Sequence record: MZ501058
Source: Escherichia phage DaisyDussoix
DNA: 64,000 nucleotides
Reading direction: 5' to 3' (one strand)
Of the stretch, positions 30,079 through 41,599 are shown one piece after another. Below the pieces are notes generated by a model that worked only from the letters and a program-made list of their open reading frames with translations, searched no databases and had not been told where the DNA came from. Each line of letters starts with the position of its first letter. Positions within the stretch are counted from its first letter, which is position 1. Made by a program: the position numbers and the translations under genes.

Positions 30079-30465
30079 ATGAGCAAAGATATAGAATTAG
30101 AACACGCCCTGCATAATTATACCTCTTACTTGGAGGGTAATGAAGTAAAAGAATTAACTAAGGAACAAATCCTACTAATTCTAGATTCTCTAGTTTTAAA
30201 GTTTAAAAAACTAGAGGAATACTACTCCGTAGGTAATGGGGATGAAAGAGTAGAACTATCTCTAAGTCTTCTAGAAGACATGGGGTGGGATGAAGATGAC
30301 CAAGTAGGGTACTTGGGGATTTCTGTAGAAATCTTAGAAAACACAGAACATGAAGATATTTTAGAAGTGAAAAGTAGAACAGCTATTCGTTATGGTACTT
30401 ATGGAAGTGGAATAACTGGATTAAAAGCGCTTCTTAGTATGGATCTAGGGTGGTTGGATGAGTAA
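30079..30465 (+). CDS. hypothetical acidic protein
   Basis: ORF track 128 aa. Confidence 0.45.
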   Translation: MSKDIELEHALHNYTSYLEGNEVKELTKEQILLILDSLVLKFKKLEEYYSVGNGDERVELSLSLLEDMGWDEDDQVGYLGISVEILENTEHEDILEVKSRTAIRYGTYGSGITGLKALLSMDLGWLDE

Positions 30466-31003
30466 ACAACCGACACTAGAGAGATTAAAAGAACTTCTAA
30501 ATTATGATCCTGATACCGGAATATTTACTAATAAAATAAGTAGAGGTAAGGGAGGTAAAGCCGGAGCAGTTGCTGGTTATTTAAGAAAAGATGGTTATAT
30601 AACTATAAAAATAGATAAAGTAGATTATCTAGCCCATAGACTGGCATTCCTGTATATGACAGGGAGTATTCCTGACTTAGTAGATCATATAAATCGTATA
30701 CGGTCAGATAATAGATGGAAAAATTTAAGAGAATCTACTAGTCAAATTAATAATAGAAACTGCACTGCCTCTAGCAAATCAGGGTACTTAGGGGTACATT
30801 GGAATAAGCAACTACAAAAGTGGCAAGTACAGATAATAAACTGTGAGGGTAAGAATATTTATGGTGGAATATTCGAATATCTAGACTTAGAGAACGCCGT
30901 ATTAAAAGCAAATATCTTGAGACACGAGTTACATGGTAAAGATGCTGTAGAAGAAATATTTTATAATAACTATTATCCCACATTAGAGGAACTTAATAGA
31001 TGA
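30458..31003 (+). CDS. HNH homing endonuclease (AP2-domain type)
   Basis: 181 aa; YLAHRLAFLYMTG...VDHINRIRSDNRWKNL. Confidence 0.8.
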   Translation: MSKQPTLERLKELLNYDPDTGIFTNKISRGKGGKAGAVAGYLRKDGYITIKIDKVDYLAHRLAFLYMTGSIPDLVDHINRIRSDNRWKNLRESTSQINNRNCTASSKSGYLGVHWNKQLQKWQVQIINCEGKNIYGGIFEYLDLENAVLKANILRHELHGKDAVEEIFYNNYYPTLEELNR

Positions 31004-31476
31004 GTACATTTCATATATACACAGATGGTGCTTGTAAGTCTAATCCAGGTCCAGGTGCTTGGGGTTTTATTGTCTATGATGATAACAACGATCGTTTAGG
31101 TTCTAAATCTGGTTATAATCCTAAAACCACAAATAACGAGATGGAACTCACAGCTATTGTAGAAGCTCTACGTTGGTCCGTTAAAAAAGATAATAGACCA
31201 ATTGCTATCTATACTGACTCTGCTTATTGCAAAAATGGCATGGAAAGTTGGATGTTTTCTTGGCAAAGGAAAGGCTGGAAGAAAGCAGATGGTGAAGTTC
31301 CTCTTAATCTAGAACTTTGGCAGGAAGCATTTAAATTAACACAGCAGTATATCAACTTTCATAATACTAACCCTACCTTTATTAAGGTTAAAGGACATTC
31401 TGGTATTAGTGGTAATGAAGCTGTAGATGCACTATGTAATACAGTTATTACTGAGCAAGAACTTGCTGAGATGTGA
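31000..31476 (+). CDS. rnh: ribonuclease H
   Basis: YTDGACKSNPGPGAWG, ELTAIVEAL, YTDSAY, VKGHSGISGNEAVDALC motifs. Confidence 0.8.
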   Translation: MSTFHIYTDGACKSNPGPGAWGFIVYDDNNDRLGSKSGYNPKTTNNEMELTAIVEALRWSVKKDNRPIAIYTDSAYCKNGMESWMFSWQRKGWKKADGEVPLNLELWQEAFKLTQQYINFHNTNPTFIKVKGHSGISGNEAVDALCNTVITEQELAEM

Positions 31477-31486
31477 TAAATAAATT

Positions 31487-31530
31487 AAAAATTTTCTTGC
31501 TTAAAGCCCCCTAATTTAGTATAATATTCG
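31487..31530 (+). promoter_or_regulatory. T5-type sigma70 promoter
   Basis: AAAAATTTTCTTGCTT-N17-TATAAT. Confidence 0.55.
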
Positions 31531-31552
31531 TATTGAAAGTGAGGAGGGCTTT

Positions 31553-31831
31553 ATGCGAATTTACAACTCAAATTCATTAGGATTTAAACCTTTGAGAAAA
31601 CTCGCACAACCTCCGCGTCAGATCAGAAAGGCAAATATTGGTGAGCCAGAAACTAGGCTTCCACCACCTCCGGAGCAACGTCTAGTTTACCTAGACGAAG
31701 AATTAGCCGAAAGGGAACGCAAAGCTCAAGAAGAAATTGAGCGCAAGAAACTGTGTACTGCTCCAGCGTATAATAAAGGAGCGTATCAATATGTCTCAGA
31801 TGCCGAACAAGCTAAGATGGTTGGTAGATAA
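31553..31831 (+). CDS. hypothetical protein
   Basis: GAGGAGGG RBS; 92 aa. Confidence 0.45.
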   Translation: MRIYNSNSLGFKPLRKLAQPPRQIRKANIGEPETRLPPPPEQRLVYLDEELAERERKAQEEIERKKLCTAPAYNKGAYQYVSDAEQAKMVGR

Positions 31832-31837
31832 TTTTTA

Positions 31838-31880
31838 AAAAATTCATTTGCTAAACGCTTCAAATTCTCGTATAATATAC
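31838..31880 (+). promoter_or_regulatory. T5-type sigma70 promoter
   Basis: AAAAATTCATTTGCTA-N17-TATAAT. Confidence 0.6.
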
Positions 31881-31914
31881 TTCATAAATTGATAAACAAA
31901 AAGGAAAACAAATA

Positions 31915-32430
31915 ATGGCTAAGCAGAAAAACGCAAAAACTCAAGCAGCTCCGGCAGTTAAAACTTTCCCGCAGACCGAGGCTAATCGCAAAGCTCGTCT
32001 GGAACGCCACCTGCGTAAGCATCCTACCGATGCTCAGGCTGCGCAAGCACTGAATAATCCGGCTCCGATTCGTAAGAAGCCTAAAGCTAAAAATGCCACC
32101 CGTAAATCCTACAAAATGGTTATGTATGTAGAAAATTACGGCCACAAATCTGTCCCAGTTTCCATGAGCTTCAACGCTGGGGCTGAATTATTCTCTCGTA
32201 ATGGTATGTCTATGAAAGACTATGAGAAGGCAGTTAACCAGAAGCGTAAACCAACAGCAGATGTATTGCGTGATACTCGTGGACAGTTTGGTTCTGTTAA
32301 GCCAAATATCTTTGGCGTAGAGTATAGTAAAGATAATGTTCGTGCTCTGTGTTACGGTGTAGGCATTAAGTTCACGGGTGATTCTGCTCGTAAATCTGCT
32401 AAACCAGCTCGCAAGCGTAAAGCGAAGTAA
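31915..32430 (+). CDS. hypothetical basic protein
   Basis: 171 aa, Lys/Arg-rich termini. Confidence 0.5.
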   Translation: MAKQKNAKTQAAPAVKTFPQTEANRKARLERHLRKHPTDAQAAQALNNPAPIRKKPKAKNATRKSYKMVMYVENYGHKSVPVSMSFNAGAELFSRNGMSMKDYEKAVNQKRKPTADVLRDTRGQFGSVKPNIFGVEYSKDNVRALCYGVGIKFTGDSARKSAKPARKRKAK

Positions 32431-32437
32431 TAGATAA

Positions 32438-32456
32438 ATAGGGGCAGAAGCCCCTA
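32438..32456 (+). other. stable GC hairpin (GGGGC-AGAA-GCCCC), weak terminator or processing site
   Basis: hairpin without clear U-tract. Confidence 0.35.
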
Positions 32457-32493
32457 CAATCTACTAATTCTCTAACTAATCAAGGATATTTTT

Positions 32494-32709
32494 ATGTTCT
32501 CTAAGAAACCACGTTCCGTTACTGAAATCGTTGCTTCCTTTACCACTATCACTGATGAGCTTCAAGCTCGTATTGAGGCTGATCAAAAAATTGCTGCGGA
32601 TATTCAGAAACAGCAGGAAGAACTCGCTTTAAAGTTGGCTGAAACCAACAAGAGCGAAAAATCTGCCCAAACTATTATGGAAAATATCCTTAAACTGCTG
32701 GGCAAGTGA
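32494..32709 (+). CDS. hypothetical small protein
   Basis: ORF track 71 aa. Confidence 0.45.
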   Translation: MFSKKPRSVTEIVASFTTITDELQARIEADQKIAADIQKQQEELALKLAETNKSEKSAQTIMENILKLLGK

Positions 32710-32717
32710 TTTAAATC

Positions 32718-32742
32718 AGGGGGCGAAAGCCCCTCTTATTTG
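32718..32742 (+). terminator. intrinsic terminator-like hairpin (GNRA loop)
   Basis: GGGGC-GAAA-GCCCC + UCUUAUUU. Confidence 0.45.
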
Positions 32743-32750
32743 GAGAAACT

Positions 32751-32987
32751 ATGCGTAATTTTGTAGCAAAGAATGATTTTAACCGTGCTAGCACCCATAA
32801 GTCAGCTAGGGATTATACACGACTTTCTAGTCATGAAGTAATGGATACCTGTTATGAAGAGCTGGAAGGTAGCTGGAATGACTGGCCCGACTTCTCTATG
32901 GAAGAGAACTGGGATGTCAGTGAGGATATGCTTCCTGGTTTTAAAGACCCCAAGAAGTGGGAGTCTATTAAAGAGACAGCTCTTTAA
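32751..32987 (+). CDS. hypothetical small protein
   Basis: ORF track 78 aa. Confidence 0.45.
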   Translation: MRNFVAKNDFNRASTHKSARDYTRLSSHEVMDTCYEELEGSWNDWPDFSMEENWDVSEDMLPGFKDPKKWESIKETAL

Positions 32988-33015
32988 TAGTTTTCTACAC
33001 AATAAAGGATAAGTT

Positions 33016-33717
33016 ATGAAAGTAAAACCATTTGGTATGCTAGATATTGAATCTCTAGGAACTCCAGGAGATTGTGGTACTACTCATATCGCAATGCCTT
33101 CTTTCGCTTTTGTGGCTATGCATGGGATTGATAAAGACCCTGACTTAGTATTTGCTACTTTGGATGTGCAGGATCAGCTTAATTCTGGTGCCAAAGTTAC
33201 AGCATCTACTCTAGCATTCTGGATGGATCAAGCTAAAAATAGCCCGTCTGCTATCCACATTATGGAAGCCATGAAGGAACGTAATCCAAAACTGATTGCC
33301 TTCCAAAATGGTAAACATCATTGCACTAATAAATTAGGCTCAAACTATGCTGCCTTCTCTATGTCTCAAAATATTATGGAGTTGGCTCTAGGTGAAAATG
33401 CTTTGTATTATGGCAATGGCCCAGAGTTTGATATGACTATCTACTCTGCAAACACGTTCCATGCTGGAACCAATGAAGAGGTAGTTCCGTGGAAATTCTG
33501 GAATTTGGGCAATGTTCGATCTCTTCGTAATCTCTGGATGCAAGCTGGATACAGTTATAAGGCTCTAGAGACCGAAGGTATTAGCTGGGCAATAGCTAAA
33601 ATGGAGAAGATGGACACTATTCGTTATGGGATCTATCCGGTTAAGCATGATCCTGCATTTGATGCCTTAGTTGAAAGCTATTGTGTTGCAGCTATGATCG
33701 AAAAAATGAAAATTTGA
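33016..33717 (+). CDS. DEDD-type 3'-5' exonuclease-like protein (T4 DexA-like, tentative)
   Basis: N-terminal LDIESLG (DxE) and C-terminal KHDPAFDA (H..D) signatures. Confidence 0.45.
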   Translation: MKVKPFGMLDIESLGTPGDCGTTHIAMPSFAFVAMHGIDKDPDLVFATLDVQDQLNSGAKVTASTLAFWMDQAKNSPSAIHIMEAMKERNPKLIAFQNGKHHCTNKLGSNYAAFSMSQNIMELALGENALYYGNGPEFDMTIYSANTFHAGTNEEVVPWKFWNLGNVRSLRNLWMQAGYSYKALETEGISWAIAKMEKMDTIRYGIYPVKHDPAFDALVESYCVAAMIEKMKI

Positions 33718-33752
33718 TTTGCTTCCGGCCCCAAAATTCTGTATAATATATT
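33709..33752 (+). promoter_or_regulatory. T5-type sigma70 promoter
   Basis: AAAATTTGATTTGCTT-N17-TATAAT. Confidence 0.55.
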
Positions 33753-33787
33753 CATAAATTTGAGAAAACAATAAAAGGAAAACATAT

Positions 33788-33970
33788 ATGCCAGTATCTA
33801 AAAATGTTCGTAAAAATGGTAAGAAAGCTACTCGTAATCTGGGTATCCGTCGTATGGCTGAACGTCAATCAGGTATCCAGAAAATCTTTGATCTGCTAAA
33901 TCGTGCTAATCCTAAAATTGATAACAGTAATGATACTGTTCTACGCACTCTGCTGGCAATTGGTCTGTAA
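33788..33970 (+). CDS. hypothetical small basic protein
   Basis: AAAAGGAAAA RBS; 60 aa. Confidence 0.4.
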   Translation: MPVSKNVRKNGKKATRNLGIRRMAERQSGIQKIFDLLNRANPKIDNSNDTVLRTLLAIGL

Positions 33971-35422: not shown

Positions 35423-35877
35423 ATAAAATGAAGGCAGCTTTGCTTTTAATAGCTGCCCTAACCTATAGCTTCAATAGTCATGCGACCTACGACTCAAAGC
35501 AGATTGATTGCATTGCAAAAAATATCTACTTCGAAGCACGAGGTGAGGGCACTAAAGGAATGATCGCAGTTGCACAGGTTACTAAAAACCGTGTTAACTC
35601 TGGTACTTTTCCTGATTCTTACTGTAAAGTAGTATATCAGTCTAACCAGTTCTCTTGGGTGGCCAAGAGACCAAAAGTTGATAAAACCGATGAGGCTTGG
35701 CAAGTTGCTAAGAATTTAGCTAGAGTGATATACTACGTTGATTTACCACAAGATCCAACACATGGAGCGTTATACTTCCATAGTGGTAAAGATAAACCTT
35801 ACTGGACAAAGAAGTTTAAGAAAACAACGAAGATTCAAGGCCATACGTTCTACAAGCCTGTGGTTAAGAAAACTTAA
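35410..35877 (+). CDS. secreted SleB-like cell-wall hydrolase
   Basis: signal peptide MKAALLLIAALTYSFNSHA; NIYFEARGE...AVAQVTKNR SleB-family motifs. Confidence 0.55.
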   Translation: MAGVNKMKAALLLIAALTYSFNSHATYDSKQIDCIAKNIYFEARGEGTKGMIAVAQVTKNRVNSGTFPDSYCKVVYQSNQFSWVAKRPKVDKTDEAWQVAKNLARVIYYVDLPQDPTHGALYFHSGKDKPYWTKKFKKTTKIQGHTFYKPVVKKT

Positions 35878-35918
35878 AAATTCGATTGCTTAAAGCCTTA
35901 AATTTCTGTATAATACTT
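35876..35918 (+). promoter_or_regulatory. T5-type sigma70 promoter
   Basis: AAAAATTCGATTGCTT-N17-TATAAT. Confidence 0.55.
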
Positions 35919-35945
35919 TCATAAATTAATGAGAGGAAGCGAAAT

Positions 35946-36116
35946 ATGAAATCAGTTGTAATTATTGGTGTTAATACTCGTGGTATCCGTACTACGAAAA
36001 CAGTTAAAACTACTAACGTTGCTGAAATTACTACAAACCCTAAGAAGTTTGATTTCGCCAAAGTCTCAGCAGTTATGACAGAGCAATCTTTTAACCAAGC
36101 ACTGGGGATGAAATAA
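35946..36116 (+). CDS. hypothetical small protein (56 aa; below ORF-track cutoff)
   Basis: GAGAGGAAG RBS, ATG 35946, stop overlaps next start (TAATG). Confidence 0.35.
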   Translation: MKSVVIIGVNTRGIRTTKTVKTTNVAEITTNPKKFDFAKVSAVMTEQSFNQALGMK

Positions 36117-36565
36117 TGGAAGAGAATATTCTAGATGTTTTGCGTAGGGCTTTGCAGGAATCTAAGGTTGATGGTTCTGATAAAGAAGTAGCTAAAAGCT
36201 ACCAGACCATAATCGGAGATCTTCAGCGTGTTGATAAAGACTTCATTACTTCTGAACAGTTTGTATCTTATCTAAAAGCTCAACTGAAAAGCATTAATCA
36301 GACGAAAGCTAAACTTCACGGTCAAGACATTGATAATTATAGCTTGCAGTCTGCTCAGTATGAATATATACTGAACAAATGGTTACAACAGTATCTGCCG
36401 CCTCAGCTTTCTGATTCTGAGATTCGCAAATACTTTGCAGAATTAGTTAAGTTGAACCCTGGGATTACGAAAGGTATGCTGATGAAAGCGATTAAGGAAG
36501 AATTCCCTGGTCGTTATGATGGTGGTATTGCTGCTCAAGTTGCTGGCGAATTCAATAAAAATTGA
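36116..36565 (+). CDS. GatB/YqeY-like domain protein
   Basis: C-terminal WLQQYLPPQLSDSEIRKYFAELVKLNPGITKGMLMKAIKEEFPGRYDG matches YqeY/GatB pattern. Confidence 0.5.
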   Translation: MEENILDVLRRALQESKVDGSDKEVAKSYQTIIGDLQRVDKDFITSEQFVSYLKAQLKSINQTKAKLHGQDIDNYSLQSAQYEYILNKWLQQYLPPQLSDSEIRKYFAELVKLNPGITKGMLMKAIKEEFPGRYDGGIAAQVAGEFNKN

Positions 36566-36600
36566 TTTGCTAAACGCTTCAAAATTCTGTATAATAGATT
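36557..36600 (+). promoter_or_regulatory. T5-type sigma70 promoter driving ORF-free RNA region
   Basis: AAAAATTGATTTGCTA-N17-TATAAT. Confidence 0.55.
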
Positions 36601-37454
36601 CATAAATTAGAGAACAGCGAGCCGATTACGCTGAGTGAGTTTAGTGATTCCTAATAGGATAGCTATCCCACTGAATAGAGTCGGTGAGTTGGAGACTAGT
36701 AAGTACTCTTAGAGAGGCTACGAGCTAACGCTTATTGCTATTGATAGGGAACTGAAAATCTGCGGAAAACTCGGGAGCTGTCCCGAAATCTCGTAAACTC
36801 TTCTCTAGTTTATGTTAGTGGGGTGTCGAACTGACTTATGTGATAACACTGCCGTCCTAGTATAAACGGTAATATCAAACCGTAACTGGTGGAAGATGCA
36901 GGTTCGAATCCTGCGGTCGGAAAGAATCAGATAACTCGGGCTTATACCGGATAAGCATTCGCTGCTGTAGTACATACTATGACGGTTCAGGAGGTACGCC
37001 GCCTGATCAGTATTAGGTTAGAATCGAAACAGCTAAACCACGAGGAAACCTGACGGCCTCAATCAAACTCGGAACTCGGGATCACTGCCTAGTGTGTGCC
37101 CCGTTTAACCTGAGACTAGGCATCCAGCTTCGCATCGAAAATCGGAGGTGCGATTCTAACAGACCGCGTGAATATGAGAGTGGGAAATGCTGACATGAGA
37201 GATGTCACTAATGGTGCCCAATAGTACAGGTAATTCGCGATAATTCCTGTTGAGCGGCAGCAGTAGGCTGGGAGTCATGACCTAAGCCTAACCGAGTTCT
37301 TCACATACGGAGAACATAACCACAAAGTCACCCTGACTTAAACTGGAGGATATTATCTGACGGAAGGGCTGCAGAGCTTAATCTGAGGGGGCTGACCCTA
37401 CCTACCGTCGGGTATCTTTAAGAGCTTTTATAAGAGTTCTTAAAAATACCTAAA
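36601..37454 (+). ncRNA. candidate structured ncRNA / degenerate tRNA region (no ORF of 60 aa or more on either strand)
   Basis: 850 bp ORF-free directly after a strong promoter; tRNA T-arm copy at 36898-36914 without matching acceptor stem. Confidence 0.3.
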
Positions 37455-37529
37455 CGGGGTGTAGTCTAAGGGATAGGCAGGAGTCTTCTAAATTCCTTTA
37501 TGCAGGTTCGAATCCTGTCACCTCGGCCA
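37455..37529 (+). tRNA. tRNA-Arg (anticodon UCU)
   Basis: manual cloverleaf: acceptor CGGGGUG/CACCUCG, anticodon loop CUUCUAA, T-loop UUCGAAU, CCA encoded. Confidence 0.6.
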
Positions 37530-37555
37530 ATTTTATTAACTGCTAGGAAAATAAA

Positions 37556-37756
37556 GTGAAAACACGATATATAGTAAAAGTAGTAGGTGAACATTCACAA
37601 GTAAATACCACCGATGTTACAGCGCTAGCATTTGAAGTAGTCTCCGGTATAGTCATATTTCATAACGGAGATATCAAAGCTCCTGAATTTGCTGTGGATG
37701 CTAGCCTGTTTATTTCTGCAACTAAAGTAACTGTAGTAGCTAACTCTTCTAAATAA
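37556..37756 (+). CDS. hypothetical beta-rich small protein (possible NfeD-like partner of SPFH protein)
   Basis: GTG start with AGGAAA RBS; 66 aa immediately upstream of SPFH gene. Confidence 0.4.
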   Translation: MKTRYIVKVVGEHSQVNTTDVTALAFEVVSGIVIFHNGDIKAPEFAVDASLFISATKVTVVANSSK

Positions 37757-37767
37757 TAAGGAAATAT

Positions 37768-38712
37768 ATGTTTACTAAAAATATGAAAGAACTGACTTCT
37801 GAGCAAAAAGTAATTCGCACTATTAAACGTTGGGGTATTGGTGCTGTAGTTGGTTTAGCAGGTTTAATCCTAGCTTTTAATTCATATACTATTGTTTCTG
37901 ATGGTACGGTTAAAACCCAAACATTTCTTGGTAAAGTAGATCCTAATCCAGTATTACCTGGTTTCCATCTTGTAAACCCATTTGCATCTTTCGATACTTT
38001 TAGTACAAAAGATATTGCTGTAAAATTAGATAAACTTCAGGTTCCTAGCCAGGATAAGTTTAAATCCACTGTTGACCTGACTGTTATGTTGCAGTTTGAC
38101 GGTTCTAAGGCACCGATCAACCGTATTAATGCAGGTACTCAGGATCAGGCTCTAGATAAGTACGTAACTGAAAAATTACTGTCTACTATTCGTGAGTTTG
38201 GTAAGTCTGTACCTAAAGCACAAGATTTATTTGATGCTAAAATTCAGGCTCAATTGCAAACTGCAATTCAACAGGAAGTTGAAGAGTATGCACGCCCTTA
38301 TGGTTACACAGTTAAGCAAGTGTTCCTTCAGGATATTACGTTGCCACCGGTAATCATGGAACAGGTACAAAATACCAAAGTTCGTGAAGAACAGGTTAAT
38401 GCTGCGAAAGCTGAGTTGGCTCGTGTTGAACAAGAAGCACAGCAGAAGGTTAAACAAGCAGAAGCAGATCGTGAAGCTCGTAACAACCAAGCTATTGCAA
38501 ACGAACGTGATGCAGATGCTAAACTGTACGCAGCTAAGAAAGAAGCCGAAGCTAACGCCGCGCTGCAACGTACTATTACTCCTGAGATGATTCGCTGGAA
38601 ACAACTAGAAGTTGAAATGATTCGTGCTCAGAAATATCAAGGTGGTGTACCGCAAACAGTGGTTGGCACTGGTTATGATGGCCAGATGATTATGGATATG
38701 CGTAACAAGTAA
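37768..38712 (+). CDS. SPFH/band-7 (stomatin/prohibitin-like) membrane protein
   Basis: N-terminal TM (WGIGAVVGLAGLILAF), band-7 core, long Ala/Glu/Gln coiled-coil tail. Confidence 0.6.
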   Translation: MFTKNMKELTSEQKVIRTIKRWGIGAVVGLAGLILAFNSYTIVSDGTVKTQTFLGKVDPNPVLPGFHLVNPFASFDTFSTKDIAVKLDKLQVPSQDKFKSTVDLTVMLQFDGSKAPINRINAGTQDQALDKYVTEKLLSTIREFGKSVPKAQDLFDAKIQAQLQTAIQQEVEEYARPYGYTVKQVFLQDITLPPVIMEQVQNTKVREEQVNAAKAELARVEQEAQQKVKQAEADREARNNQAIANERDADAKLYAAKKEAEANAALQRTITPEMIRWKQLEVEMIRAQKYQGGVPQTVVGTGYDGQMIMDMRNK

Positions 38713-39348: not shown

Positions 39349-39437
39349 GGAAGAATAGCATAACGGTATTGCAGCAGATTGCTAATCTGTCGGTTTGAAA
39401 TATAGCCTTGTGGGTTCGATTCCCACTTCTTCCGCCA
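39349..39437 (+). tRNA. tRNA-Ser (anticodon GCU), type II
   Basis: acceptor GGAAGAA/UUCUUCC, anticodon loop UUGCUAA, long variable arm, T-loop UUCGAUU, CCA. Confidence 0.65.
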
Positions 39438-39444
39438 AATTCTG

Positions 39445-39521
39445 GTTCTCAAGCTCATATGGTATGAGCACCCAGCTCATAACTGGAAGGTACGTAGGTT
39501 CGAATCCTCGGGGAGCCACCA
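39445..39521 (+). tRNA. tRNA with CAU anticodon (Met or Ile-lysidine)
   Basis: acceptor GGUUCUC/GGGAGCC, anticodon loop CUCAUAA; T-stem imperfect. Confidence 0.5.
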
Positions 39522-40575: not shown

Positions 40576-40851
40576 ATGCAAAATCGTGTTATAGCAACTG
40601 GTATTGAAAGTGCAATCTGTAAATCCTGGGAAGGCTGGGAAGGTGAGATTGAATGGCTTTATTTCTACGATGTAGAACTTCTGCCGGAAGTTAAAGCTAA
40701 ATGTGTTGAAGCTGGAATGGCTCCAGATGCAAAAGCTGATATTGATATTTCAATGTCTGAACTTAAAGGCCGTGTAATTACTGTTAGTGATGAGGGTGAA
40801 GAAGTTTTCGAACTTCCATTCTCCTTAACTGTCACTCCTAAGTTCGACTAA
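40576..40851 (+). CDS. hypothetical acidic protein
   Basis: AAGGAG RBS; 91 aa. Confidence 0.45.
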   Translation: MQNRVIATGIESAICKSWEGWEGEIEWLYFYDVELLPEVKAKCVEAGMAPDAKADIDISMSELKGRVITVSDEGEEVFELPFSLTVTPKFD

Positions 40852-40877
40852 CTAATACAGCACTGAGCAAGTTCTTT

Positions 40878-40920
40878 AAAATTTGACTTGCTCAGTGCCT
40901 TAAAACTTGGTATAATAGTT
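40878..40920 (+). promoter_or_regulatory. T5-type sigma70 promoter for tRNA operon
   Basis: TTGACTTGCTC-N17-TATAAT. Confidence 0.5.
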
Positions 40921-40932
40921 ATCTAATTTGGA

Positions 40933-40982
40933 AACATATTTAAAAGTGTTTAAACTAGTATTTTAGTACTTTTAAATATGTT
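40933..40982 (+). repeat. 15-bp perfect inverted repeat with 20-nt spacer between promoter and tRNA-Tyr
   Basis: AACATATTTAAAAGT ... ACTTTTAAATATGTT. Confidence 0.6.
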
Positions 40983-41059
40983 GGATTAGTATCGTAGAGG
41001 TAGCGAAGCAGACTGTAAATCTGCCGACTCGGGTGGTTCGACTCCATCATCCAACACCA
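40980..41059 (+). tRNA. tRNA-Tyr (anticodon GUA)
   Basis: acceptor GUUGGAU/AUCCAAC, anticodon stem GCAGA/UCUGC loop CUGUAAA, CCA. Confidence 0.55.
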
Positions 41060-41066
41060 AATTTAA

Positions 41067-41143
41067 GTCCTGTTAGACAAACTGGTAAAGTCACTACCCT
41101 TTCAAGGTAGGATTTGCGGGTTCGATCCCCGCACAGGACGCCA
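41067..41143 (+). tRNA. tRNA-Glu (anticodon UUC)
   Basis: acceptor GUCCUGU/ACAGGAC, anticodon stem CUACC/GGUAG loop CUUUCAA, T-loop UUCGAUC, CCA. Confidence 0.65.
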
Positions 41144-41152
41144 ATTTCTGCA

Positions 41153-41228
41153 TTCCTAGAGTGTTACTGGACAGCATGTCGGTCTCCAAAACCGTACGGT
41201 CTAGGTTCGAGTCCTAGTAGGTTTGCCA
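41153..41228 (+). tRNA. tRNA-like gene, possible Trp (anticodon CCA); acceptor pairing poor
   Basis: T-arm CUAGG-UUCGAGU-CCUAG, anticodon loop CUCCAAA, CCA end; 5' acceptor strand not resolved. Confidence 0.35.
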
Positions 41229-41234
41229 AAATTT

Positions 41235-41309
41235 GCACCTTTAGCTGAGATGGATTAGCGCTTGCCTGAAGAGCTTGAGAGGTTCGTTCGATACGAACAG
41301 GGTGCACCA
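41235..41309 (+). tRNA. tRNA, probable Phe (anticodon GAA)
   Basis: acceptor GCACCUU/AGGGUGC, T-arm GUUCG-UUCGAUA-CGAAC, loop CUGAAGA, CCA. Confidence 0.45.
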
Positions 41310-41311
41310 AA

Positions 41312-41599
41312 TTGAAGGAGCTGCTGATGCATCCTGAAAACTTCTTTATTTACTGCGCGGATAAGTCGCTGAAACGTAGAATTAACAAAGTCTATCATTA
41401 TCGTGCTAGTCAACAGCCTTATGTATACGCTTTTGACGGTAATCACATTCCATTAGAACAATTATCCTGTGATTACATGATATTGAAGAACTTTGACGAG
41501 ACAAAGATCTCAAGCGTTCACAATCGACAGAATCCATTAACGTGGAAACATAAGAAGAAAAAGAAAGGTATCAAATTCTTAAAAAATGTAGTTGCTTAG
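41312..41599 (+). CDS. hypothetical protein (likely start ATG 41327)
   Basis: AAGGAG RBS before MHPENFF; 3' end carries next promoter. Confidence 0.4.
   Translation: MKELLMHPENFFIYCADKSLKRRINKVYHYRASQQPYVYAFDGNHIPLEQLSCDYMILKNFDETKISSVHNRQNPLTWKHKKKKKGIKFLKNVVA

Follow-up and report, generated by a model that had tools for sequence, protein, structure and literature searches.

The analyzed window was a 64,000-nt stretch of the genome of Escherichia phage DaisyDussoix (sequence record MZ501058), read on one strand. Its segment 36601-37454 is located between an early promoter and a tRNA-Arg(UCU) gene, the first among 23 tRNA genes detected in the window by ARAGORN, and is described here as the gene of a large RNA related to RNAX of phage T5. 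The first-pass annotation, made from the letters of the window alone, had presented the segment as free of open reading frames (ORFs) in otherwise tightly packed DNA, preceded by a strong T5-type promoter and followed by a canonical tRNA-Arg(UCU), and all four statements were confirmed. The longest ORF within the segment encoded 56 aa (36805-36975, minus strand), the remainder did not exceed 40 aa, and the plus strand carried none longer than 33 aa. The flanks were occupied by genes at 36116-36565 upstream and at 37556-37756 and 37768-38712 downstream. A consensus scan of the promoter gave 10 of 12 matches with a 17-nt spacer (TTGCTA-17-TATAAT), and the equivalent T5 promoter is annotated as P16-17. 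The -35 and -10 hexamers and the upstream TAAAAAT tract were conserved in all 22 aligned homologues, the hexamers being invariant, and the transcription start is predicted at about position 36602. Scanning of the region 35800-38200 revealed neither a second plus-strand promoter nor a plus-strand terminator. The tRNA-Arg(UCU) was recognized by both ARAGORN and Rfam. The ORF directly upstream of the promoter showed a weak similarity to YqeY/GatB-tail proteins (Pfam 25.4 bits, below the cut-off of 27; PDB 1ng6, E = 0.029), and its product could conceivably be a partner of the large RNA. The coordinates of all features are collected in Table 1.

An annotation of this transcript exists already for the type phage. 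The T5 RefSeq record NC_005859 contains at 40848-41566 a misc_RNA named rnaX (T5s08), a "stable RNA with unknown functions" of 719 nt, which extends from P16-17 to the exact 5' end of tRNA-Arg. The order of the elements is the same in both phages, with the YqeY-like ORF, promoter, RNA and tRNA-Arg of the window corresponding to T5.081, P16-17, rnaX and tRNA-Arg of T5. A family hidden Markov model (HMM) matched the T5 locus with 465 and 113 bits, and the scores of the core covariance model R1 were 169.0 bits for T5 and 169.9 bits for the window. The homology extends from the stalk region to the terminal hairpin and includes the same tRNA-like module and palindromic loops (see below), whereas the T5 RNA is a short form, with a 5' domain represented by a 30-nt hairpin, another central region and an insert of about 85 nt in the 3' domain. 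That the segment encodes a real structured non-coding RNA (ncRNA), orthologous to RNAX, is considered almost certain. The T5 annotation gives no structure, internal tRNA-like element or function for RNAX.

Table 1. Features of the RNAX locus in the window (positions counted from the first nucleotide of the 64,000-nt stretch).
Feature	Position	Strand	Remarks
YqeY/GatB-tail-like ORF	36116-36565		Directly upstream of the promoter
Early sigma-70 promoter	36556-36600	+	A/T-rich upstream tract; -35 TTGCTA 36567-72; -10 TATAAT 36590-95
Whole RNA, about 853 nt	36602-37454	+	T5 RNAX orthologue by synteny, homology, strand-specific fold and lack of a conserved ORF
5' domain	36602-36813	+	Closed by P1 36602-14/36801-13; optional across the family
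P2 hairpin	36615-19/36629-33	+	Inside the 5' domain
P2-loop pairing	36621-27 with 36679-85	+	Pseudoknot or alternative fold
GCUG-loop hairpin	36771-76/36781-86	+	Inside the 5' domain
Domain II	36817-37042	+	AGUGG 36817-21 and CCAC 37038-41 enclose the stalk, tRNA-like module and variable region
Stalk helix	36831-44/36926-39 (36831-36939)	+	12 pairs and conserved C.C and G.G mismatches
tRNA-like module	36851-36922	+	At the stalk tip; Rfam tRNA 29.3 bits
Module arms	Acceptor 36851-57/36915-21; D 36860-63/36872-75; anticodon 36879-81/36888-90; T 36898-902/36910-14	+	GG in the D loop; UUCGAAU in the T loop
Hairpin GCUUAU-ACCGG-AUAAGC	36940-36956	+	Directly 3' of the stalk; 93% paired
Central linker	37043-37178	+	Variable between lineages (blastn blocks, alignment)
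Domain III	37179-37324	+	AGUGG 37179-83 with CCACA 37320-24
Domain III hairpins	Ha 37191-96/37202-07; Hc 37226-30/37246-50; Hd 37265-72/37281-89; He 37296-300/37311-15	+	All four covary
Hc loop	37231-37245	+	Palindrome UCGCGA 37235-40; candidate symmetric kissing loop
Hd loop AGUCAUGA	37273-37280	+	Palindrome UCAUGA (GUCAUGAC with the closing pair); candidate symmetric kissing loop
Domain IV	37326-37409	+	Hairpin AGUCA-CCC-UGACU 37326-38, conserved UAAACUGGA, three-way junction
Three-way junction	37359-63/37405-09, 37366-70/37375-79, 37386-89/37396-99	+	Around conserved UUAAU
Terminal 18-bp A/U-rich hairpin	37411-37450	+	4 nt before tRNA-Arg; 95.6% paired, 3 pairs changed on both sides
tRNA-Arg(UCU)	37455-37529	+	ARAGORN; Rfam 49.3 bits; ends in GCCA

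The structured nature of the RNA was visible in the window itself, as the plus strand folded with z = -3.9 relative to shuffled sequences and the minus strand with z = -0.95, and the G+C content was about 0.49 in the segment and about 0.38 in the flanks. Comparison of the homologues was performed block-wise, on two sub-alignments with 102 base pairs in total, and the observed values were confronted with those for slid pairing partners and for 500 shuffles. The whole-length RNAalifold analysis of the projected alignment was unreliable because modules of the RNA are non-homologous replacements of each other. In the 36814-36962 block, counted on 25 distinct sequences, 89.5% of cells were paired versus 33-44% in the slid controls, and 22 pairs were changed on both sides versus 2-9 in the controls. 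In the 37176-37454 block the corresponding values were 84.6% versus 37-44% and 29 pairs versus 7-14. None of the 500 shuffles reached the observed values in either block. The helices are thus kept by compensatory changes across Demerecviridae. A brute-force helix finder counting G-U changes was too noisy to be used directly. Two pairings, helix Hb (GUGC/GCAC, about 37214-37225) and UGGUGCC/GGCAGCA, were dropped as they had no consistent support.

The pattern of substitutions bears on a protein-coding explanation, according to which the segment holds several small ORFs. GenBank records treat the RNAX locus in different ways, leaving it blank, filling it with spurious small ORFs or annotating the tip of the stalk as 'tRNA-OTHER', 'tRNA-Sec' or 'tRNA-Ser'. 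In some of them (Seabear, Klebsiella phages) 'hypothetical proteins' of 33-70 aa are annotated inside the segment. However, neither the position nor the frame of these ORFs is conserved between lineages, the plus strand of the window offers none above the 33 aa given above, and the substitutions follow paired helices, which leaves coding with next to no probability.

The covarying helices are also long-range, spanning about 200, 100 and 140 nt in P1, the stalk and the closing helix of domain III, respectively, which indicates that the segment is one molecule. Alternatively, turnover of the tRNA array could have left behind a cluster of independent small RNAs and degraded tRNA genes. This would fit the T5 tRNA region, where another seven small 'stable RNAs', some resembling tRNAs, are annotated, and the mosaic character of the locus, which has undergone recombination and received homing-endonuclease insertions. 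However, only one tRNA-like element was detected in the segment at E <= 10, the long-range compensatory helices join distant parts, and a single conserved promoter precedes the RNA, with no second start or terminator in the scanned region. Such a cluster is considered very improbable.

The architecture revealed by these data is a chain of helical modules, comprising an optional P1 domain, a stalk with a tRNA-like tip, two GUGG/CCAC-closed domains, a three-way junction and a terminal hairpin. The stalk is preceded by the near-invariant AUAGUGGGGUGUCGAA. In the stalk, 99.0% of cells were paired and 7 of the 12 pairs were changed on both sides, and the helix was retained in Providencia phage PSTCR5, which had not been included in the model. 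The C.C and G.G oppositions (36835/36935 and 36840/36930) were conserved from the Salmonella phages to PSTCR5 while the neighboring pairs covaried, and this suggests a motif for specific recognition or a tertiary contact. The hairpin directly following the stalk also covaried (alignment pair 149:157 UA/AU/CG and pair 146:160 CG/GC).

The stalk carries a tRNA-like module at its tip. The first-pass annotation had noticed a copy of the tRNA-Arg T arm, which it called orphan, and the copy itself was confirmed: GCAGG-UUCGAAU-CCUGC at 36898-36914 is identical in 16 of 17 bases to the T arm at 37502-37518. The accompanying statement that a matching 5' strand of the acceptor could not be found needed correction, since GCCGUCC at 36851-57 pairs with GGUCGGA at 36915-21 in five of seven positions (G.A and U.U mismatches), and the Rfam tRNA model RF00005 aligns with the module from end to end. 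The score was marginally above the gathering threshold of 29 bits in the window and ranged from 26.6 to 50.2 bits in the homologues. The outcome for tRNA finders was divided, as Rfam matched 36851-36922 and ARAGORN did not call it, although it called some of the homologues with a different anticodon in each. Of the two interpretations put forward earlier, a tRNA-derived element in a long stable transcript gained support from the T5 rnaX orthologue and from the conserved acceptor, D and T arms of the module, whereas several small RNAs or standard tRNAs found none in view of the single tRNA-like element and the long-range covarying helices.

Across the family, the acceptor showed 80.6% of paired cells with five pairs changed on both sides, and all seven pairs were formed in T5, Gostya9 and the homologous locus L054. 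The T arm was paired in 92.7% of cells and the GG of the D loop was nearly invariant. The anticodon arm was degenerate, with 3 bp and a 6-nt loop in the window versus 5 bp and 7 nt in tRNA. The identities assigned to the module varied by lineage (Ser-CGA, Pro-UGG, Ser-ACU, Leu-UAG, Ser-AGA, pseudo-UAA, SeC-UCA, Pro-CGG), and a 3' CCA was lacking, the acceptor of the window being followed by AAAG running into the stalk. Judged from these sequences, the module at the tip lacks the behavior of a decoding tRNA, and conservation is concentrated in the acceptor, the T arm and the GG of the D loop, which make up the "top half and elbow" of a tRNA.

Such a selective conservation is what would be expected if the RNA acted as a monomeric tRNA-mimic decoy, titrating or misleading a host factor that recognizes the acceptor, T arm or elbow (e.g., RNase P, a modification enzyme or a defence nuclease that cleaves tRNAs), with the remainder of the RNA serving as packaging. 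The conserved acceptor, D (GG) and T arms, next to an anticodon arm that varies freely, and the exposure of the element at the tip of a 12-bp stalk speak for this explanation. T5 tRNAs counter the tRNA-targeting defences PARIS and retron Eco7 (the latter as cited in PMC10644984), and the upstream gene has the weak YqeY/GatB-tail similarity mentioned above. On the other hand, the tip was replaced in Sds2, L158 and PSTCR5 while other parts of the RNA were kept, and the tRNA-like module holds the smaller part of the conserved sequence and covariation. As a complete account of the RNA, the monomeric decoy is regarded as unlikely.

The stalk with its tip is enclosed in domain II, and the same type of closing helix recurs in domain III. 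The AGUGG motifs at 36817 and 37179 and the CCAC motifs at 37038 and 37320 are mutually complementary, and all four were changed to ACGG/CCGU in the Pectobacterium phages DU_PP_V and My1. The co-switching supports two closing helices in the predicted fold, with the partnering of the strands remaining ambiguous. In the closing helix of domain III, G:C was replaced by A:U and U:A by C:G in the same two phages. Between the two domains, the central linker varied, with the exception of a block at 37128-37170, the identity of which exceeded 90% in Yersinia and Klebsiella phages.

Two hairpins of domain III, Hc and Hd, expose palindromic loops. The Hc palindrome differed by lineage, being UCGCGA in the window, CGCGCG in T5, UCCGCGGA in Klebsiella phages, GUGCGCAC in phiR201 and CitS1 and GUGCAC in Pectobacterium phages, and the Hc stem also changed between lineages in a covarying manner. 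In a joint shuffle test, a palindrome of at least 6 nt in all four independent Hc loop classes was obtained in 132 of 200,000 cases. The core of the Hd loop, GTCATGAC, was identical in 56 of 57 loci on a covarying stem. As a genome-wide DNA motif, GTCATGAC was discarded, since its two copies in 64 kb are about the number expected by chance.

A palindrome of 6-8 nt is unable to pair inside its own loop, so it can pair only with a second copy. For OLE, GOLLD and ROOL, the evidence for kissing loops consisted of palindromes that change yet stay palindromic, or of conserved symmetric loops (Kretsch et al., PMC12286853). By the same reasoning, it is tentatively proposed, at somewhat less than an even chance, that RNAX self-associates through its palindromic loops. 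The Hc and Hd loops could then act as inter-subunit kissing bridges, giving a closed homo-oligomer, ring or cage, which would display or enclose the tRNA-like tips. A comparable element is the dimerisation initiation site of HIV-1, in which a 6-nt palindrome, GCGCGC or GUGCAC, forms the kissing loop. The Hc palindromes (CGCGCG, GUGCAC, GUGCGCAC) are likewise GC-rich, 6-8 nt long, variable between lineages and still palindromic, but the molecules are unrelated and dimerisation of RNAX is putative.

In domain IV, the three-way junction occurred in three non-homologous, isostructural versions, which were shuffled among the phages. T5 (locus L016) and a metagenomic relative, L175, carry here, at the equivalent of about 37326-37348 of the window, an insert of about 85 nt flanked by a 23-nt direct repeat, AGTCACCTTGAC(T/A)TAAACTGGAA. 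This insert duplicates the hairpin and the UAAACUGGA motif.

The RNA closes with the terminal A/U-rich hairpin just before the tRNA-Arg. The large RNA would acquire its 3' end, 4 nt past this hairpin, through RNase P cleavage at the 5' end of tRNA-Arg, and its own 5' end would be buried in P1. With the 5' end in P1 and the hairpin at the 3' end, both ends would be protected, which would explain the stability of the RNA. It seems probable that the ends are formed in this way. In the case of MALAT1 and mascRNA, an RNase P cut at a tRNA-like element releases a long stable RNA. By analogy, RNAX would also be a long ncRNA whose 3' end is formed by RNase P at an adjoining tRNA structure and protected by a terminal structure. 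MALAT1 is eukaryotic and of unrelated sequence, however, and in RNAX the downstream element is a genuine tRNA-Arg and the processing is putative.

The shared promoter and the direct contact of the RNA with tRNA-Arg could also mean that the segment is only a long structured 5' leader or spacer that has no function besides assisting tRNA-Arg(UCU) expression or processing, and the T5 rnaX was itself defined as everything between promoter and tRNA. However, in NR01, K44, STWB21, phiR201 and KEY the RNA and its terminal hairpin were kept despite ORFs of about 500 nt before tRNA-Arg, the hairpin staying with the RNA where the ORFs part it from the tRNA. Moreover, covarying helices over 0.65-1.35 kb and near-invariant loops exceed the needs of a leader, and the other tRNAs of the window have no such leader. 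This explanation is held to be improbable.

The intervening ORFs encode 166-186 aa in STWB21 (L015 1769-2278), K44 (L011 1317-1817) and NR01 (L004 2351-2911). No Pfam match was obtained for those of STWB21 and K44, the two that were scanned.

At the opposite end of the RNA, compensatory changes between lineages were found in P1, P2, the P2-loop pairing and the GCUG hairpin. Of the 5' domain, T5, SA001, K44 and Gostya9 retained only a 30-nt hairpin, which has the P1 sequence, and an HNH endonuclease ORF took the place of the domain in SE3 and CitS1. In the two latter phages (L142 407-1541 and L143 453-935, respectively), this ORF encodes a 160-aa HNH_3 endonuclease and comes after the promoter, and the RNA resumes at the AUAGUGGGG motif. 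The locus seems, from such arrangements, to be a target of homing-endonuclease traffic. In a further variant, an extra module of 170-250 nt, e.g., CAAAACGAUGGUUCUCAACAUGAGC...CAUCGAA, was inserted between P1 and the AUAGUGGGG motif (L005, L013, L014, L015, L006, L131, L141 and L158). It was conserved among Klebsiella, Yersinia and some Salmonella phages.

The segment was 100% identical to that of Salmonella phage 3-29 (Epseptimavirus, Demerecviridae), in the record of which no feature is annotated here, and blastn matched it in 568 phage records, including phages of Salmonella, Escherichia, Klebsiella, Yersinia, Citrobacter, Erwinia and other hosts. The homologues, 0.65-1.35 kb long, were found across Demerecviridae in Markadamsvirinae, Mccorquodalevirinae and, as the core only, Priunavirus. 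The Mccorquodalevirinae copies, in DU_PP_V and My1, and the one in PSTCR5 (Priunavirus) were located via the neighboring YqeY-like gene. In PSTCR5, the core was found at 61 bits by the covariance model built without this phage. Searches of IMG/VR with the pattern AGTCATGACC..AACCAC gave mostly chance matches, all true ones being T5-like, and the pattern GGGGTGT.GAA..AACACTGCC gave, outside T5-like phages, only chance matches in coding DNA in IMG/VR, JGI metagenomes and genomes of 185,579 prokaryotic species (one genome per species). By the motifs used, the family appears to be confined to Demerecviridae.

Rfam searches of the window and eight homologues, at the gathering threshold and at E <= 10, returned tRNA as the sole match, and the identities of GOLLD, ROOL, OLE, a group I/II intron, RNase P, tmRNA and a riboswitch were rejected, as none was matched in these nine sequences. 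The RNAX profile used in nhmmer gave nothing at E <= 100 against GOLLD env-38, and its search against ROOL env-120 was empty as well. The literature searches yielded no paper on RNAX and none linking T5-like phages to GOLLD or ROOL, and no T5-like phage is named in the accessible part of the supplementary text of the GOLLD/ROOL survey. In the T5 annotation, Rfam and the literature searched, we could not find the family-wide covarying architecture, the module swapping, the stalk-mounted tRNA mimic or the palindromic loops.

The likeness of RNAX to GOLLD and ROOL is an analogy, not homology. GOLLD and ROOL are ornate RNAs, the former of phages and bacteria and assembling into a 14-mer nanocage (PMC12286853), the latter of phages and prophages and assembling into an 8-mer nanocage. 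GOLLD is of phage origin and is located beside tRNA islands, with a conserved 3' part, a variable 5' part and tRNAs sometimes present in a linker. It is a multi-domain RNA of about 800 nt or more with symmetric palindromic kissing loops, for which RNAX has candidates. RNAX resembles it in length (0.65-1.35 kb), in the position at the head of the 23-tRNA region, in the optional 5' domain and conserved 3' blocks and in the tRNA-like element inside. In contrast, the tRNA of GOLLD lies in a disordered linker and the tRNA-like element of RNAX at the tip of a conserved stalk. ROOL is also phage-borne, located near tRNA islands, of unknown function and provided with a conserved symmetric kissing loop, the counterpart of which in RNAX is a candidate. 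It differs by the lack of homology, a length of about 580-670 nt, intertwined 5' and 3' parts and no described tRNA-like module.

The best overall explanation, given about an even chance of being right, is that the segment is an Epseptimavirus orthologue of RNAX, a large ncRNA acting by itself like GOLLD and ROOL. By this analogy, RNAX would work as an RNA itself and be of the same kind as these ornate RNAs. Its stalk would display a mimic of the tRNA acceptor and T/D elbow, self-association would proceed through the UCAUGA and the lineage-specific GC-rich palindromic loops, and the assembly could provide the phage with a scaffold or decoy in its conflict with the host over tRNAs. A role in such a tRNA-related conflict is a doubtful part of the proposal. 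Similarly doubtful is the placement of RNAX as a third class of 'ornate' phage RNAs that self-assemble, unrelated in sequence to the other two.

Several observations weigh against this explanation. Among the modules, only the stalk region is universal, and the 3' half is seemingly absent in PSTCR5. The tRNA-like tip is dispensable, since Sds2 and L158 carry a short, unrelated hairpin in its place (with a compensated closing helix) and PSTCR5 about 30 unrelated nt. The palindrome argument is post hoc, with single-loop shuffle frequencies of 0.007-0.29. One group keeps only CGCG in the Hc loop, and My1 has GUCAUGCC in the Hd loop, which breaks the UCAUGA palindrome. In many homologues ORFs intervene before tRNA-Arg, so RNase P cleavage at this tRNA cannot generally account for the 3' end, and another route is needed there. 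Finally, the label "stable RNA" rests on a GenBank note, whose basis could not be traced in the literature.

GOLLD and ROOL have recently been shown to form RNA-only cages, and what they do is unknown (PMC12286853). RNAX in T5-like phages of E. coli and Salmonella would offer a tractable system for the question of why phages pair giant structured RNAs with tRNA genes, as E. coli and T5 bring CRISPR-based knock-downs, known tRNA-targeting defences and public RNA-seq data. The native hosts of GOLLD and ROOL are, in our assessment, genetically harder than E. coli. If RNAX does belong to a self-assembling class, the function of ornate RNAs would become accessible to ordinary genetics. The RNAX family is missing from Rfam, and a family model would correct hundreds of phage annotations.

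Other elements of the region were noted in the course of the analysis. The promoter sequence TAAAAATT..TTGCTA..TATAAT recurs with about 80% identity upstream of other early genes (e.g., window 36556-36609; L001 826-879 and 3856-3913), and by sequence it represents a family of T5-type early promoters. A 56-aa ORF at 35946-36116 (plus strand), immediately preceding the YqeY-like gene, matched Pfam DUF7616 over its full length with 114.8 bits, and its predicted product is a conserved small protein within the same gene block. The seven further T5 "stable RNAs" (RNAI, RNAIII, RNA1, RNA2, RNA2H, RNAIV and RNA3) are annotated at 30284-33949 of the T5 record (L016, NC_005859 24000-44000), all inside the tRNA region. 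BF23, a close relative of T5, was reported to lack tRNA-Arg (PMC10644984). Within the tRNA region of the window, the sequence 39444-39518 (plus strand), located directly after tRNA-Ser(GCU) (39349-39437), gave an Rfam tRNA score of 38.2 bits and was not called by ARAGORN. T5 has tRNA-Ile2(CAU) at the equivalent place, and 39444-39518 is probably a genuine tRNA missed by ARAGORN.

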